Source: Candidatus Woesearchaeota archaeon
GTDB lineage: Archaea; Nanobdellota; Nanobdellia; Woesearchaeales; GCA-2687795
Length of the DNA: 64,000 nt
NCBI GenBank assembly: GCA_002687795.1
Contig: NZBG01000003.1
Span: 24,557-88,556, forward strand
Reading direction: 5' to 3'
Shown here: positions 6,463 through 53,176 of the stretch, one piece after another
Numbering within the stretch: position 1 is the stretch's first letter
How the letters are laid out: the number at the start of each line of letters is the position of its first letter
Translations under genes and position numbers: made by a program
The notes under the pieces: model-generated
The model's input: the letters and a program-made list of their open reading frames with translations, nothing else
Database searches by the model: none
What the model was told of the DNA's origin: nothing

Positions 6463-6537
6463 ATGAGAGAAAATATCGCAAAGCTAAACCTGAATAATTC
6501 TTTGTTACTGTTAGCTTTGCTTCTGTTACTGTTATAA
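6463..6537 (+). CDS. 24-codon leucine-rich leader peptide (MRENIAKLNLNNSLLLLALLLLLL)
   Basis: ATG 6463 to TAA 6535-6537. 10 of the last 11 sense codons are Leu (TTG, TTA, CTG, CTT). TATA-like TTAAATATA at 6432-6440 is spaced for a leaderless start. The ORF lies 92 nt upstream of leuA. It is too short for the ORF track. Confidence 0.6.
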   Translation: MRENIAKLNLNNSLLLLALLLLLL

Positions 6538-6564
6538 GCATTCCAATTCTTCTTGGAAATGCTT
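6536..6564 (+). promoter_or_regulatory. hairpin overlapping the leader stop codon (candidate attenuator/terminator stem)
   Basis: AAGCATTCCAA (6536-6546) pairs with TTGGAAATGCTT (6553-6564): 11 bp with a 1-nt bulge and a 6-nt loop. It is followed by U-rich CATTGTTATCACTTGTTTATTCTCT. Confidence 0.5.
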
Positions 6565-6629
6565 CATTGTTATCACTTGTTTATTCTCTAAAACTTTAAA
6601 AAATCTTTAAGGAGGAATAAAAAAATAAA

Positions 6630-8198
6630 ATGAAACAAAATGTGAACGATGGAAACAGGGTTTATGTATTCGATACTACATTAAGAGATGGTGAGCAAAC
6701 AGGTAGTACAAGAATGAATGCAGACGAGAAAATTCAGATTGCAAGACAACTTGAGATTCTTGGAGTTGATGTTATTGAAGCGGGGTTCCCTATTTCATCC
6801 CCGGAAGATTATAAGGCTGTGGAATTAATAGCAGCGGAAATTAAAGATCCAATAATCTGTGGTCTAACACGAGCTATACCTGAAGATATTGAGGTATGCG
6901 GCAGGGCTTTGTCAAAAGCCAAGAAACCAAGAATTCATACAGGAATCGGAGTGTCTGACATACACATAACGGGAAAATTTGGAGACGAGAAATATGGAAC
7001 CACTTTAGATGAAAAAAAAGAGACAATTATAGAGATGGCAGTTTCTGCTGTGGGACTTGCCAGGGAATATACAGACGATGTAGAATTTTATGCAGAAGAT
7101 GCGGGAAGAGCAGATATTAGTTATCTTTTAACGGTAATTGAGCATGCTATAGATGCCGGAGCAACAACAGTAAATATCCCTGATACTACTGGCTATAGTA
7201 TTCCTAAACAATTCGGTGCTTTGATAATGACTGTAAGAGAGTCTGTCCCAAATATAGGCAGAGCAATAATCAGTGTGCATTGCCATAACGACTTAGGGAT
7301 GGCTGTTGCCAATACCCTATCCGGAATAGAAAACGGAGCTCAACAGGCAGATGGAACAATAAATGGAATAGGAGAAAGGGCAGGAAATGCTCCTATAGAA
7401 GAAATAGTTATGGCTTTGAAGACAAGAAAGGACTATTTTAACAAAGAAACTGGAATAAACACCAAAGAGATATACAGAACATGTCGTCTTGTCTCGGGGA
7501 TCACTGTCCCAATATCACCATATAAAGCTGTTAGTGGAGATAATGCGCACAAACATTCTTCAGGAATCCATGTAGATGGTTTTTTAAAAAAAAGAGAAAC
7601 TTATCAAATAATGGACAAGAGTGATGTCGGTTTTCCAGAAGACAGAGAATCTATTACATTAACATCACGTACTGGGAGACATGGATTAGGTCATAGACTT
7701 GAAGAACTTGGTTATGAAGTTAGTCGAGAAGAACTAGAAGAAGTTTATCAAAGGTTCCTAGGAATTGCTGACAGCAAGAAAATAGTAACCGATGGAGATT
7801 TAGAAGCAATTATGGAAGACAGGATTGCTGAACAAGTTCCTGAAGTCTATAAGTTAGATTATGTTCATGCAAGCGGCGGTAGTGAGCATATAATACCCAC
7901 AGCTACTGTGAGGTTAATTAAAGATGGTGAAAAGGAACCGCAAGAGTCTGCTGATTGTGGTGATGGTCCTATAGATGCTGTATATAATACTATAGACGGA
8001 ATAACAGGCATCAAAATCGAACTAGTTGGGTATAACATAAGTGCAGTAACAAAGGGGAAAGATGCTGTTGGGGAAGTTATCGTAAGAATAAGGAATAACG
8101 GCAATGTTGCAAGAGGCAGAGGAAGCAGCACAGATATTATAGAAGCCAGTGCCTTTGCTTATGTTAATGCCTTAAACAGGTTGCTTTACAGTATTTAG
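6630..8198 (+). CDS. leuA: 2-isopropylmalate synthase (bacterial-type LeuA with C-terminal regulatory domain)
   Basis: VYVFDTTLRDGEQ, HCHNDLGMAVANT, GIGERAGNAP and HSSGIHVDG motifs align along the whole length with E. coli LeuA as I recall it. GGAGG at 6611-6615. Confidence 0.85.
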   Translation: MKQNVNDGNRVYVFDTTLRDGEQTGSTRMNADEKIQIARQLEILGVDVIEAGFPISSPEDYKAVELIAAEIKDPIICGLTRAIPEDIEVCGRALSKAKKPRIHTGIGVSDIHITGKFGDEKYGTTLDEKKETIIEMAVSAVGLAREYTDDVEFYAEDAGRADISYLLTVIEHAIDAGATTVNIPDTTGYSIPKQFGALIMTVRESVPNIGRAIISVHCHNDLGMAVANTLSGIENGAQQADGTINGIGERAGNAPIEEIVMALKTRKDYFNKETGINTKEIYRTCRLVSGITVPISPYKAVSGDNAHKHSSGIHVDGFLKKRETYQIMDKSDVGFPEDRESITLTSRTGRHGLGHRLEELGYEVSREELEEVYQRFLGIADSKKIVTDGDLEAIMEDRIAEQVPEVYKLDYVHASGGSEHIIPTATVRLIKDGEKEPQESADCGDGPIDAVYNTIDGITGIKIELVGYNISAVTKGKDAVGEVIVRIRNNGNVARGRGSSTDIIEASAFAYVNALNRLLYSI

Positions 8199-37561: not shown

Positions 37562-37987
37562 CTAAACCTCTTCCTTAACATTAACAGTACTCACCATCGT
37601 CAGTGTTTTCTTAATATTCTTATTCTTCCTCAACCCAATAATAAAACCATTAAACTCATCAATATCCTTAAACTTCAGCTTCAGCAACAAATCATACTCT
37701 CCTGTTATCCCAAACACTTCCTTGACACAGGAATTGCTGAAAAAAGATTTAGGCAGATCACTCTCTGTAACAACAAACAAAAACACAATAAAATTCTCAT
37801 CAACAGCCTTATTATCCAGCTTAACAGTAAACCTCTCGATAACACCCTCTTTCTTCAGCCTCTGCATCCTCAGATGAACAGTTGAAGGCCTTAACTTAGT
37901 CAGCTTGGCGATATCTCTAATAGATTTCCTGCTATCCTGCTTAAGGACTTTTATTATCTTAAGGTCTTTTTTATCGAGAATAATCCA
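37562..37987 (-). CDS. Lrp/AsnC-family transcriptional regulator (start codon unresolved)
   Basis: The track ORF (101 aa) has only the RAM domain. The same frame continues upstream through a full HTH (ILDKKDLKIIKVLKQDSRKSIRDIAKLTKLRPSTVHLRMQRLKKEG) to a stop at 37988-37990, with no ATG, GTG or TTG in it. Confidence 0.7.
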   Translation of the reverse strand, partial: WIILDKKDLKIIKVLKQDSRKSIRDIAKLTKLRPSTVHLRMQRLKKEGVIERFTVKLDNKAVDENFIVFLFVVTESDLPKSFFSNSCVKEVFGITGEYDLLLKLKFKDIDEFNGFIIGLRKNKNIKKTLTMVSTVNVKEEV

Positions 37988-51732: not shown

Positions 51733-51846
51733 TGGGGACGCTGGGATTCGAACCCAGATCCAGCGGTATCTTCAGGGTCATTGCCTTTCGACTCATATCT
51801 CCAGTTACTGGAGCCGCTTATTCTAGCCAGGTTATACTACGTCCCC
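51733..51846 (-). tRNA. tRNA-Trp (CCA) with 40-nt anticodon-loop intron
   Basis: Reverse complement: GGGGACG ... AGCGG CTCCAG[TAACTGGAGATATGAGTCGAAAGGCAATGACCCTGAAGAT]A CCGCT GGAT CTGGG TTCGAAT CCCAG CGTCCCC A. The intron CTGGAG pairs with the exon CTCCAG. The D-arm is weak. Confidence 0.85.
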
Positions 51847-51927: not shown

Positions 51928-52011
51928 ATGATGGTAAAACAAACCAATTTAATATTGAAAGATTCTGTTTCAGATAGTTTTACCTTTAAATTCTTTTATT
52001 TCTTTTGGTAA
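51928..52011 (+). CDS. 27-codon aromatic-rich leader peptide (MMVKQTNLILKDSVSDSFTFKFFYFFW)
   Basis: ATG 51928 to TAA 52009-52011. 8 of the last 10 codons are aromatic: 6 Phe, 1 Tyr and 1 Trp. TATA-like TTTATATATT at 51895-51904 is spaced for a leaderless start. The ORF lies 85 nt upstream of DAHP synthase. Confidence 0.6.
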   Translation: MMVKQTNLILKDSVSDSFTFKFFYFFW

Positions 52012-52036
52012 GTGCATAGGATTTTCCTGAATGCAC
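52012..52036 (+). promoter_or_regulatory. hairpin abutting the leader stop codon (candidate attenuator/terminator stem)
   Basis: GTGCAT (52012-17) pairs with ATGCAC (52031-36), with an inner AGG/CCT pairing. It is followed by CATTATCTCGACTTTTATTCTCTATAAATTTTTT. Confidence 0.45.
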
Positions 52037-52096
52037 CATTATCTCGACTTTTATTCTCTATAAATTTTTTAACAAAAATCCGGAGGACTAGAAAAA

Positions 52097-53176
52097 ATGA
52101 TAATAAAAATGGAAATGGGAACAGATGAAAAGAATATAAAGAGAGTTGAAGCTAAAATAAACGAGCTTGGGTATGAAGTTGGAGAGATACATGGAACAAC
52201 AAGAACAGTGATAGGAATAAAAGGAGATGTTTCAGAACTTAATGAAGACACTTTCATTCCTCTGCCTGGTGTGGAAGAGGTTATAAGGATAAGTAAACCC
52301 TATAAGCTAGCCAGTCTGGAATACAAAACCCTGCTGAATGGAGGAACTCCTGTATACACAAGAGTTAGTGTTGATGGCATTGAAATTGGAGGAGATAAGC
52401 TTGTAATTATGGCTGGTCCTTGCGCAATTGAAACCAAGCAACAAATAATGGATGCAGCAAAGTCCATTGATAGAATCTTCCAAGAACAGGAACATATAGC
52501 CAGGCCTATACTAAGAGGAGGTGCCGATAAGCCAAGAAGCAGCCCATATTCTTTCCAGGGCTTAGGTGAAGAAGGGCTTGAATACCTGGCTGAAGCAGGG
52601 GAAAGATATAAAATGCCAACTGTAACTGAAGTAGTCAGCACAGAAAAGGTTGAACTTGTTAGCAAATATGTAAAGATTCTCCAGGTTGGCGCCAGAAATA
52701 TGGATAACTTCGAACTGTTAAAAAGTATTGGGCAATCTGGGAAACCGGTTTTACTGAAAAGAGGAATGGCTGCAACTGTGGATGATCTACTACAATCTGC
52801 AGAATATATCCTCGATAATGGAAACAGCAATGTTATCTTATGCCTTAGAGGCACAAAATCCTTTGACAGCGGGAAAAACGGACCTTACAGAAACAACCCT
52901 GATGCTGCATATGCCGTGGCTCTAAGAAAACTTACCCCTCTTCCAACTGGATTTGATCCCAGCCATTCGACCGGAGCAAGGTATGCAGTTAAAGGAGTGG
53001 CTATAGGCGCTGTTTCTATGGGAGCTGATTTCCTTTTAGTAGAAGCTCACCCAAATCCAGAAAAGGCACTATGTGATGGGTCTCAAAGCCTGCATATGGA
53101 AGAACTAAGGGAATTAGTTAATGCAGCTAATGATTTCAGAGGCTTATATAATCACCATTTCAATGGAAAAGATTAA
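52097..53176 (+). CDS. 3-deoxy-7-phosphoheptulonate (DAHP) synthase, type I-beta with N-terminal ferredoxin-like regulatory domain
   Basis: LVIMAGPCAIE, RGGADKPRSSPYSFQGLGEEGL, LQVGARNM, LKRG and DPSH motifs. The ~75-aa N-terminal extension is like that of Thermotoga-type enzymes. Confidence 0.85.
   Translation: MIIKMEMGTDEKNIKRVEAKINELGYEVGEIHGTTRTVIGIKGDVSELNEDTFIPLPGVEEVIRISKPYKLASLEYKTLLNGGTPVYTRVSVDGIEIGGDKLVIMAGPCAIETKQQIMDAAKSIDRIFQEQEHIARPILRGGADKPRSSPYSFQGLGEEGLEYLAEAGERYKMPTVTEVVSTEKVELVSKYVKILQVGARNMDNFELLKSIGQSGKPVLLKRGMAATVDDLLQSAEYILDNGNSNVILCLRGTKSFDSGKNGPYRNNPDAAYAVALRKLTPLPTGFDPSHSTGARYAVKGVAIGAVSMGADFLLVEAHPNPEKALCDGSQSLHMEELRELVNAANDFRGLYNHHFNGKD

Follow-up and report, generated by a model that had tools for sequence, protein, structure and literature searches.

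An 11-nt block shared by the leucine and aromatic leaders of an archaeal genome: possibly a termination tract within an order-wide leader design

Two biosynthetic genes in the 64,000-nt stretch of archaeal DNA analysed here (the window), leuA and a DAHP synthase gene, are preceded by leader regions that carry the same 11-nt block, TTTATTCTCTA. The two loci are members of one leader design, found in dozens of related archaea, and the block is the genome-specific version of the last 11 nt of its U-rich spacer, not an independent or widespread motif. We think that the best reading of the block is as the termination tract of the leader transcript, with a probability of about 0.4. The features of the leucine (leu) and aromatic (aro) leaders are collected in Table 1.

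Table 1. Features of the leu and aro leaders, in positions of the window
Locus	Feature	Position	Strand	Remarks
leu	TATA box TTAAATATAA of leader promoter P1	6432–6441	+	31 nt before leader ATG, leaderless geometry
leu	Leader ORF uORF1, MRENIAKLNLNNSLLLLALLLLLL*	6463–6537	+	Cognate codons
leu	Hairpin H1	6536–6564	+	Overlaps last 2 nt of uORF1 stop; −9.8 kcal/mol, z = −3.28
leu	CATTG, instance of the CA(U)(U)G motif found behind hairpins order-wide	6565–6569	+	
leu	Possible uORF2, MLHCYHLFIL*	6559–6591	+	Predicted from sequence; starts in H1 3' arm; stop uses last two bases of block
leu	11-nt block TTTATTCTCTA	6580–6590	+	3' end of U-rich post-hairpin zone; +15 to +25 from C of CATTG
leu	BRE/TATA-like element TAAAAC TTTAAAAA	6589–6602	+	T-run 4 nt after block, 35 nt before leuA ATG
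leu	Shine-Dalgarno GGAGG of leuA	6611–6615	+	Predicted to pair with block
leu	leuA, 2-isopropylmalate synthase, bacterial type	6630–8198	+	NF002086 687 bits, TIGR00973 638 bits
aro	BRE/TATA AAAAAC TTTATATA of leader promoter P1	51889–51902	+	33 nt before leader ATG
aro	Leader ORF uORF1, MMVKQTNLILKDSVSDSFTFKFFYFFW*	51928–52011	+	C-terminal end ...FTFKFFYFFW
aro	Hairpin H1	52012–52036	+	Starts one base past stop codon; −9.0 kcal/mol, z = −2.96
aro	CATT, instance of the CA(U)(U) motif behind the hairpin	52037–52040	+	
aro	Possible uORF2, MHHYLDFYSL*	52031–52063	+	10 codons as in leu; block in another frame
aro	11-nt block TTTATTCTCTA	52050–52060	+	+13 to +23 from C of CATT
aro	BRE/TATA-like element TATAAA TTTTTTAA	52059–52072	+	T-run 4 nt after block, 32 nt before ATG
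aro	Shine-Dalgarno GGAGG of DAHP synthase gene	52082–52086	+	
aro	3-Deoxy-7-phosphoheptulonate (DAHP) synthase	52097–53176	+	NF006421 372 bits, cut-off 335

The host is an uncultured marine archaeon and the two leaders are read as amino-acid-sensing control regions. Both copies of the block were confirmed base by base, and they are the only exact ones in the window. The initial annotation had placed the block 15 nt (leu) and 13 nt (aro) behind the hairpin and 39 and 36 nt before the ATG, with GGAGG in between, CATT directly behind each hairpin (6565–6568 in leu) and A or T followed by AA behind the block (AAA in leu, TAA in aro). All of this is correct, and the shared geometry of the two leaders is borne out. 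The ACTT said to precede the block is a different matter: in leu it does so only with an extra G (ACTTG plus block), and the four bases ahead of the aro block are GACT, the last T of the supposed ACTT being already the first T of the block.

The same annotation took the two loci for unrelated, but their leaders are members of a single family and have a common architecture. Among the LeuA loci of the order, 44 of 48 have an L/V-rich uORF and none an aromatic one, while an F/Y/W-rich uORF is found at 35 of 73 DAHP synthase loci and a Leu-rich one at none; cognate uORFs on the opposite strand number at most one. The leu leader promoter scores 2.8–3.3 under the promoter matrix of the genome, above the 99th percentile of control windows. 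In all loci with a called hairpin, this GC-rich structure adjoins the uORF stop, with a gap of −3 to +5 nt (mostly −3 to +4). Behind it comes an order-wide motif, CA(U)(U)G(U)(U), which is predicted to be single-stranded and to which the CATT of the window belongs: at 30 of 54 loci a CANYG is found no more than 14 nt from the hairpin, compared to 2 of 54, 4 of 345 and 16 of 476 in controls. The motif is followed by a spacer of about 24 nt, U-rich and G-poor, and then by an A-rich BRE/TATA-like element, the Shine-Dalgarno (SD) sequence and the structural gene. In a profile of 38 loci anchored on CA, U amounts to about 42% from +5 to +24; beyond this its share drops to 28% and 19%, and that of A increases to 49–56%. 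The block ends at this switch from U to A (about +25 from CA), namely at +25 in leu and +23 in aro. Where the spacer is long, the U-rich zone remains beside the hairpin, 90–200 nt from the SD.

Other roles for the conserved motif were considered and discarded. CANYG is not the start of a second ORF nor an antisense start, a third of the copies being NCG and the antisense triplets including CTG. Pairing of CAUUG with the start codon would fit both loci of the window, but the CAGCG and CAUCG of relatives cannot pair with AUG. Hairpin plus CAYYG was found at no ordinary gene end in this genome, nor in further leaders; the combination is therefore not its general terminator. Rfam, searched with permissive thresholds, matched only a neighbouring tRNA, and a known RNA family is thus rejected.

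The genome-wide search for the 11-mer that had been suggested earlier gave five exact copies in the 925-kb assembly, both strands counted, with about two expected from Markov models of orders 1–4. Three of the five lie in ORF-like sequence and only the leu and aro copies stand 5' of a gene. A scan of positions −58 to −37 at 761 ORF starts found the block without mismatches twice (leuA and DAHP synthase), with one mismatch nowhere and with two mismatches at seven unrelated genes. No regulon motif upstream of co-regulated genes was found at these 761 starts, in an assembly that is only 76% complete. Mere AT-rich promoter background is ruled out by the five copies, two of them in 5' regions, and by the lack of near-copies elsewhere. 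Moreover, TTTATTCTCTA occurs in none of about 70 homologous leaders of the order; the proposal of a discrete conserved element does not survive its absence from every other leader.

Could the match be a coincidence of low-complexity U-rich spacers, neutral or due to chance, or the relic of a duplication or conversion, with selection acting on composition only? We consider this rather unlikely. A run of at least 11 nt is shared by 13 of 577 cross-genome pairs of aro and leu spacers (2.3%), by 4 of them at a similar offset, and a first-order Markov simulation of the spacers gives such runs in 2.8% of pairs, or 0.45% with similar offset; a chance 11-mer match would be met in about 0.5–3% of comparable spacer pairs. 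The initial comparison was also a post hoc test, since many features had been compared, and chance is further favoured by the missing one-mismatch copies at other genes, by the lack of conservation in the nearest orthologue and elsewhere in the order, and by the spacers outside the block, the similarity of which, taken on its own, is not significant (z = 0.7 after the block). On the other hand, the register of the block is identical with respect to the TATA-like run and nearly so to the hairpin, and the runs shared by cross-genome pairs are A-rich, whereas the block is not a repeat of homopolymer type. Local alignment of the whole leu and aro spacers gives z = 4.6–4.9 (p about 0.001), a value equalled by one of the 577 cross-genome pairs, and in six other genomes with both leader types the leaders share only 5–8 nt. 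This last result also rules out a genome-specific shared motif as a general rule. The match between leu and aro exceeds usual chance, not overwhelmingly so.

Similarity is confined to one segment of the leaders: the spacer has z = 4.6, promoter and uORF together have −0.7 and the hairpin has 0.4. Paralogy of the whole leaders is thereby rejected as the source of the 11-mer, because with the other two segments dissimilar only the spacer can be homologous. Common descent of a spacer-promoter module in this lineage, or its concerted evolution, is the best explanation of the identity at 11 of 11 positions. As for relatives, the nearest DAHP synthase orthologue in a large protein collection (56% identity) keeps about 9 of 14 block positions, its leader having a block-like pyrimidine stretch only. 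Contigs encoding the identical protein have an identical leader as well. Both genes and the spacer are absent from a genome of the same genus, and no close relative was found in JGI metagenomes, where the best match has 48% identity. The nearest LeuA proteins (62–66%) are encoded on bacterial-looking contigs with classical terminators.

According to the reading that we prefer, polymerase coming from the leader promoter would stop on the U-rich block, on its own or with FttA/aCPSF1, a termination factor of Archaea. How frequently it does so would depend on where the ribosome stands on the leader ORF: a ribosome that has reached the stop codon would melt the 5' arm of the hairpin, and an earlier stall would leave the hairpin folded. 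Both the ending of transcripts in the block and its gating by the ribosome are inferences, and either state of the ribosome may be the one that gives expression. The termination role suggested in the initial annotation fits the U-rich make-up and the position of the block. Over the first 30 nt past stop codons, this genome (G000) has an excess of pyrimidine runs, which outnumber purine runs there, and hexamers of the TTCTTT type, including TTCTCT, are two to three times commoner in 3' than in 5' flanks; the remaining hexamers of the block speak against that role, being no commoner in 3' flanks. With such 3' flanks, the usual intergenic layout is a stop codon, a pyrimidine-rich tract and a BRE/TATA, and the leaders copy it. 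The aro spacer has UUUU overlapping the start of the block and UUUUUU 5 nt past it; the leu spacer contains UUU runs only. T4 or longer is present in the first 30 nt of only 36% of the spacers of the order, and a pyrimidine run of at least 6 in only 28%. From the first base of the uORF stop to the start of the block there are 41 nt (aro) or 45 nt (leu), which is about the spacing of ribosome and polymerase in a coupled complex.

The genome encodes FttA/aCPSF1 (G000:C5:11829-13706; TIGR03675 840.5 bits, cut-off 580.2). [quoted passage not shown] By calculation, when polymerase is at the 3' part of the block, positions −22/−23 coincide with the conserved CA in both loci. Like the aCPSF1/FttA terminators of Methanococcus maripaludis and Thermococcus kodakarensis (PMC8716108, PMC11616081), the leaders have a U-rich tract that does not require a stem directly before it, and the 22–25 nt from CA to the 3' part of the block compare with the 22–23 nt between the FttA active site and the RNA 3' end. 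Published terminators of this kind are nevertheless those of gene ends and not of 5' leaders, ribosome gating is known for none of them, and neither the stable hairpin nor the CA motif is part of the published signal.

A more specific version of the termination reading, which we regard as distinctly doubtful, is ribosome-gated, factor-dependent attenuation in Archaea, with parts matching the geometry of an FttA/aCPSF1 pre-termination complex. In such a scheme, the block would serve as the U-rich segment for hybrid and pause, cleavage would occur at the conserved single-stranded CA 22–25 nt upstream, and the 3' arm of the hairpin would be the stretch that a second FttA protomer must bind. With the amino acid plentiful, the ribosome at the stop codon would melt the hairpin and expose this stretch, and FttA would cut and terminate; with the ribosome stalled in the codon run, the hairpin would stay folded, FttA could not engage and polymerase would enter the gene. 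A second promoter of leaderless type just past the block might add basal or interfering transcription. Several observations temper the termination reading as a whole. The U-enrichment of the spacers in the order is modest, about 42%, and the leu spacer has no U4, the defining terminator signal in Methanococcus; both count against it, as do the low shares of spacers with T4 or a pyrimidine run and the lack of hairpin plus CAYYG at ordinary gene ends. Applied in its simplest form, the ribosome logic also suits a biosynthetic gene poorly: a stall keeps the hairpin folded, and starvation would then cause termination. This would not follow if the termination factor is blocked by the folded hairpin, or if the promoter of the gene itself matters. 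Finally, the constant spacing of block and TATA-like element, exact to the nucleotide, suits a role at the DNA level just as well.

Such a role would be that of an upstream flank, including the first BRE bases, of a second promoter (P2) from which the structural gene would get a leaderless or near-leaderless mRNA. The flank could be the site of a shared regulator, for instance of Lrp/AsnC type aiding or hindering TBP/TFB, or part of a duplicated promoter module. We think that this, too, is an unlikely explanation. The distance from the end of the block to the TATA-like T-run is exactly 4 nt in both loci, while the distances to hairpin (13 vs 15 nt) and ATG (36 vs 39 nt) differ by 2–3 nt. The post-block sequences score like real promoters: 3.29 in aro, in canonical register (0), at the 90th percentile of real flanks and the 99.6th of controls; and 4.07 in leu, at the 98th percentile of real flanks and above the 99th of controls. 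The strings CTCTATAAAT and CTTTAAAAAAT, called TATA-like in the initial annotation, do sit in these promoter-scoring sequences, but the block itself is not a TATA box; an A-rich BRE and a T/A-rich 8-mer at canonical distance are present immediately 3' of it. In addition, eight Leu leaders from two other families have a perfect TTTATAAA at −31/−32 from the leuA ATG, with a spacer of 23–24 nt that is constant in length and variable in sequence. Matches to TATA peak at −33 to −30 genome-wide, and AsnC/Lrp-type domains are encoded in the genome, one of them in a 141-aa ORF on the − strand at about 37.4–37.8 kb of the window. Against P2, however, the relatives in which it is clearest do not keep the block, and no other gene of the assembly has the block or a one-mismatch copy at that position, so that no regulon is visible. 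The palindrome TTTAT-N5-ATAAA exists in the aro copy only, no general signal is found upstream of BRE in this genome, and the leuA element is in register −4, that is, 4 nt upstream of canonical. Compared to archaeal promoters of leaderless genes, the arrangement is similar in having the A-rich BRE and T/A-rich box behind the block at the typical distance from the ATG, and different in that the block is at −15 to −5 from the TATA start and that both genes have a strong SD, a feature usually missing from the leaderless genes of this genome; SD and TATA at −32 are anti-correlated, 15 genes having both versus 27 expected.

That SD raises another alternative, in which the block may pair with the SD of the structural gene and CAUU with its start codon, masking translation until the helix is opened. 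The mechanism would be a translational attenuation like that of ermC or of the mycobacterial Cys sORF, and it seems improbable to us. The helix predicted is the same in both loci. It consists of UUCUCU:GGAGGA and UUU(U)A:UA(R)AA, where a single base is bulged, has an AU hairpin inside and is closed over the start codon by CAUU(AUC):(GAU)AAUG. The predicted probability of the SD being paired is 0.94–0.98, and the partner strands are alike, GGAGGAaTAaAAAAA and GGAGGAcTAgAAAAA. A leaderless sORF attenuator that masks an SD is documented in mycobacteria (10.1101/834739); there, as in the present leaders, a leaderless sORF has a cognate run, polycysteine in that case, and an SD-masking duplex can be predicted. 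The mycobacterial run senses charged tRNA and controls the downstream gene, and it is the codon run itself that pairs with the SD, which a stalled ribosome frees, as compensatory mutants established (10.1101/834739). Here the predicted partner is the block, beyond a separate hairpin and untouched by the modelled ribosome positions. The structures are weak and no better than shuffled sequence (−9.4 kcal/mol, z = −1.55; −7.3 kcal/mol, z = −0.87), and the pairing does not exceed that of dinucleotide shuffles (p = 0.12 and 0.4; mean over 26 loci 0.58 vs 0.57). In equilibrium folding, SD accessibility is 0.02–0.07 at both loci whether the leader is free, stalled or with the ribosome at the stop, and the mean over 30 loci shows no trend (0.39 stalled, 0.38 at the stop codon). 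The long-spacer loci, where the U-rich zone lies far from the SD, also speak against it. As a selected structure, anti-SD pairing is supported neither by shuffles nor by order-wide statistics nor by modelled ribosome positions.

It is very improbable that the block is the 3' end and stop signal of a 10-codon uORF2 starting at an ATG in the 3' arm of the hairpin. Exactly 10 sense codons are present in both loci, with start codons hidden in the hairpin, a weak AGGA is found upstream in aro, and the nearest orthologue also has an ORF there, MLYIWFFIVKIILLQF*. Yet the block is read in different frames, TTT ATT CTC TAA versus TT TAT TCT CTA TAA, and the peptides therefore differ; most relatives have no start codon at this place, the leu uORF2 is not conserved, and an ORF of about 10 codons is expected after any ATG in AT-rich sequence.

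Leader-peptide control of amino-acid genes is a textbook mechanism of bacteria, and a full-text literature search found no report of it in Archaea. The present leaders resemble the trp, his, leu and pheA attenuators of E. coli and Salmonella in having a short leader ORF before the first gene of the pathway, with a run of cognate codons at its end, and a GC-rich hairpin and a U-rich stretch behind it. Cognate pairing is strict: the leader of leuA has Leu/Val codons, that of DAHP synthase has Phe/Tyr/Trp codons. The differences are considerable: the host is archaeal and the leader mRNA leaderless, and instead of the bacterial set of 1:2, 2:3 and 3:4 hairpins there is one hairpin adjoining the stop codon. 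Only one significant hairpin comes after each uORF (z about −3), and folding with the ribosome at the stall sites or at the stop gave no alternative helix and left the downstream part as it was. A bacterial intrinsic terminator has a U-run right after the stem, where these leaders have CAUUG or CAUUA, with the block 13–15 nt after the hairpin, and bacterial attenuators lack the promoter-like BRE/TATA that is found here between hairpin and gene.

The block matters less than the leader design behind it, which is common to dozens of genomes in an archaeal order and the downstream half of which is unlike any bacterial attenuator, with its stop-adjoining hairpin, CA(U)(U)G, U-rich zone of about 24 nt and promoter-like element. 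A promoter-proximal role for the block would make each locus a unit of tandem promoters, the second of them under the control of a sensor mini-gene in front of it. If transcripts end in the U-rich zone, ribosome-dependent termination in Archaea would become directly testable on small, defined templates, and with it the proposed role of FttA in checking the coupling of transcription and translation. Should the FttA-gated version be true, Archaea would have their first described amino-acid attenuator, which would also be the first one based on a termination factor of CPSF73 type.

The leader before leuA (leu) and the leader before the DAHP synthase (DAHPS) gene (aro) share one layout, formed by a BRE/TATA box, a short upstream ORF (uORF), a hairpin, CATT, the 11-nt block TTTATTCTCTA, an A/T-rich stretch, GGAGG and ATG. 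The initial annotation had reported this identical block in both leaders, and its presence and all the distances given for it are correct; ACTT, said to precede it, is a loose description, for the aro copy only. Both loci belong to an assembly (G000) of 925 kb in 39 contigs, 76% complete and with 38% GC, in which the window spans G000:C3:24557–88556; among the archaeal markers are Hef nuclease, an archaeal CCA-adding enzyme and PINA. Each uORF also contains an internal hairpin between early codons and those that open the regulatory codon run; it might be a pause or 5'-end structure.

Table. Features of the two leader loci and their genomic neighbours (window coordinates unless a contig is named)
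Feature	Position	Strand	Remarks
Leader promoter BRE/TATA box, both loci	31–33 nt 5' of short ORF		leaderless geometry
leu leader ORF, MRENIAKLNLNNSLLLLALLLLLL*	6463–6537		
leu internal uORF hairpin	6478–6487 with 6511–6520		GCAAAGCUAA pairs with UUAGCUUUGC
leu hairpin	6536–6564		begins at/inside uORF stop codon; −9.8 kcal/mol, z ~ −3
Block, leu copy	6580–6590		TTTATTCTCTA
leuA ATG	6630		
LeuA	6630–8198		
AsnC/Lrp-type ligand-binding domain	~37589–37726 (G000:C3:62145–62282)	−	in 141-aa ORF
Intron-containing tRNA gene	51733–51846	−	Rfam tRNA, 42.7 bits; missed by ARAGORN
aro leader ORF, MMVKQTNLILKDSVSDSFTFKFFYFFW*	51928–52011		
aro internal uORF hairpin	51933–51940 with 51977–51984		GGUAAAAC pairs with GUUUUACC
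aro hairpin	52012–52036		begins at/inside uORF stop codon; −9.0 kcal/mol, z ~ −3
Block, aro copy	52050–52060		TTTATTCTCTA
DAHP synthase ATG	52097		
Lysine-type gene row	G000:C6:17000–23500	−	

The whole assembly contains five exact copies of the block on both strands, against ~2 expected, and the three beyond the leaders sit in ORF-like sequence. At −58 to −37 of 761 ORF starts, two copies are perfect, none has one mismatch and seven have two, these last belonging to unrelated genes. Therefore, the block is not AT-rich promoter background, the possibility that had been raised against it, and that scan also rules out a regulon motif. The spacers of homologous leaders in other genomes served as an empirical null, with 577 aro × leu pairs: an exact run of at least 11 nt is common to 13 of these cross-genome pairs, mainly as A-rich runs, and to four at a similar offset (2.8% and 0.45%, respectively, in first-order Markov simulation). 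Alignment of the whole leu and aro spacers gives z = 4.6–4.9 (p ~0.001), a score reached by 1/577 cross pairs. No similarity between the two loci was found in the promoter-plus-uORF segments (z = −0.7) or in the hairpins (z = 0.4), and that lying 3' of the block is alone not significant (z = 0.7). In six other genomes having both leader types, the two have only 5–8 nt in common. The match is real and unusual, yet confined to the G000 genome.

The leaders themselves are widespread. Among 401 genomes searched in this archaeal order, comprising G000 and a sample of 400 others, DAHP synthase is present in 90 and LeuA in 52, and upstream DNA was obtained for 73 and 48 loci, respectively. An F/Y/W-rich uORF precedes 35 of the 73 DAHPS loci and an L/V-rich one 44 of the 48 LeuA loci, with no cross-matches and at most one match on the opposite strand. 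In all loci with a called hairpin, this is GC-rich and abuts the uORF stop codon (gap −3 to +5 nt, mostly −3 to +4). It is followed by the consensus C-A-U(58%)-U(55%)-G(55%)-U(50%)-U(47%), anchored on CA; CANYG lies at most 14 nt from the hairpin in 30/54 loci, and the controls yield 2/54 (a window of these loci), 4/345 and 16/476 (genome flanks). Thus, the CATT noted after each hairpin is the truly conserved piece, as part of an order-wide motif. Counted from the C, positions +5 to +24 of the spacer have ~42% U and little G, and from +25 U drops to 19–28% while A climbs to 49–56%. With its last base at +25 (leu) or +23 (aro), the block thus makes up the 3'-terminal part of that U-rich zone. 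It is absent from every other leader locus examined in the order, and the closest DAHPS orthologue (56% identity, on a JGI contig) has TTATCTTACTTCAA in place of the window's TTATTCTCTATAAA. The initial observation stands, and its interpretation is supported in part. The 11-mer is best regarded as the longest stretch of identity within a spacer-promoter module common to the two G000 loci, rather than as an individual conserved element.

Across amino-acid classes and genomes, leader peptides resemble one another in their N-terminal halves (loci L011 in genome G003, L152 in G129, L153 in G111 and window 6463–6500), with examples in MRENIAKLNLNN (leu, window 6463–6500), MRKSAKTNLNNLA (aromatic, G003, L011), MKAGKRLNLN (leu, G129) and KQTNL (aromatic, window); the leaders look like one family with swapped sensor codons. 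In Leu leaders L157, L167, L173, L175, L177, L178 and L185 (families f119/f135), CUAGUUCU(U) occurs twice, inside the Leu/Val codon run and as the hairpin 5' arm. Because of this duplication the hairpin 3' arm could pair with either copy, which may constitute an alternative structure; the arrangement is lacking in the window's own leaders.

Across the 5' flanks of the whole G000 genome, TATA matches (at least 7 of 8 positions of TTTATAAA) have a sharp maximum at −33 to −30 from ORF starts; just 13% of genes have a Shine-Dalgarno (SD) sequence, and fewer genes than expected (15 versus 27) combine an SD with TATA at −32. Most G000 genes are thus leaderless, and so, for the most part, is translation in this organism. 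leuA and the DAHPS gene are unusual in having both an SD and a canonical TATA. With a promoter matrix built from G000 5' flanks, the element behind the block scores 3.29 at the DAHPS gene, in the canonical register (90th percentile of real flanks, 99.6th of controls), and 4.07 at leuA, in a register 4 nt further upstream (98th percentile), equal to or higher than the leader promoters of both loci (2.3–3.3). The distance from block end to T-run is exactly 4 nt in both loci (TTTATTCTCTA-TAAA-TTTTTTAA and TTTATTCTCTA-AAAC-TTTAAAAA). Moreover, in two other families, eight Leu leaders show an exact TTTATAAA at −31/−32, with 23–24 variable nt after it that include an SD. The matrix scores, the 4-nt register and these eight leaders therefore give real support to the suggested internal promoter, in the sequence adjoining the block and not in the block itself.

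The block is tentatively predicted to be a termination tract of the leader transcript, with a probability of roughly 40%. At G000 gene ends, strand-specific pyrimidine runs lie within the first 30 nt past the stop codon and TTCTTT-type hexamers are 2–3 times enriched; thus, the normal layout is stop, pyrimidine-rich tract and promoter, which the leaders follow. Against a terminator, the leu spacer has no U4 run, such a run occurs in just about a third of the order's spacers, and the composite of hairpin and CAYYG is absent at ordinary G000 gene ends. The block might instead sequester the structural-gene SD, with which RNAfold pairs it in identical register at both loci, CAUU also pairing with the start codon. 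However, the predicted structures are weak (−9.4 and −7.3 kcal/mol, z = −1.55 and −0.87), SD pairing does not exceed dinucleotide shuffles in the window loci or across 26 loci, and modelling a ribosome at the stall sites or stop codon leaves the result unchanged, both for the window loci and across 30 loci. In long-spacer loci, besides, the U-rich zone remains by the hairpin, distant from the SD.

As for how termination could be regulated, a ribosome finishing the leader must melt the hairpin 5' arm because the hairpin abuts the stop codon, whereas one stalled in the codon run, last two codons excepted, would leave it folded, so that a folded hairpin would signal starvation. With a hairpin-dependent terminator, starvation would then silence the biosynthetic gene, the wrong response for such a gene; more likely, termination is hindered by the hairpin, or alternatively the second promoter plays a part. 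The former option agrees with the published geometry of the archaeal termination factor FttA (aCPSF1), which G000 encodes. FttA cleaves RNA 22–23 nt upstream of the 3' end, with U-rich RNA bound at −29 to −36, and is proposed to be a competitor of the coupled ribosome (PMC11616081); aCPSF1 recognises U-tracts (PMC8716108) and prefers single-stranded CA (PMC3553952). When polymerase stands over the 3' portion of the block, the calculated distances put −22/−23 on the conserved CA and −29 to −36 on the hairpin 3' arm in both loci. The full FttA mechanism, with cleavage deduced from these distances, we consider improbable.

Several neighbouring features deserve mention. The tRNA gene, with anticodon CCA (Trp) by eye and C/D-box-like strings (UGAGU...CUGA) in its intron, adjoins, in divergent orientation, the aromatic leader promoter; Trp is the final codon of that leader. 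G000 LeuA has 62–66% identity to proteins on bacterial-looking contigs (loci L202–L204) and at most 48% to any LeuA of its own order; in those contigs GC is 51–56%, promoters are of the TTGACA type, and classical Leu leaders have terminators formed by a hairpin and a U-run. A horizontal origin of leuA is likely, and despite it the gene stands behind an archaeal-style leader. The row on contig C6 is an aminoadipate-type lysine cluster, which may also serve leucine synthesis: a LysW-like small protein (ending EDWGE), a homocitrate/isopropylmalate-synthase-like protein bearing a C-terminal AsnC-type ligand domain, and LeuC-, LeuD- and LeuB-like proteins, in this order, with no leader peptide. Chorismate synthase (PF01264) was not found in the 76%-complete assembly, possibly owing to a gap, and DAHP synthase with its aromatic-sensing leader is present despite this. 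Lying between the leu and aro leaders, the 141-aa ORF may encode a regulator that responds to amino acids.

The functional statements made here on the block and the leaders are predictions, and no description of this archaeal leader design was found in a full-text literature search. We think that the value of the block lies in its surroundings, an archaeal leader design that recurs across the order and joins the conserved motif CA(U)(U)G to a U-rich zone of constant length and an element resembling a promoter.
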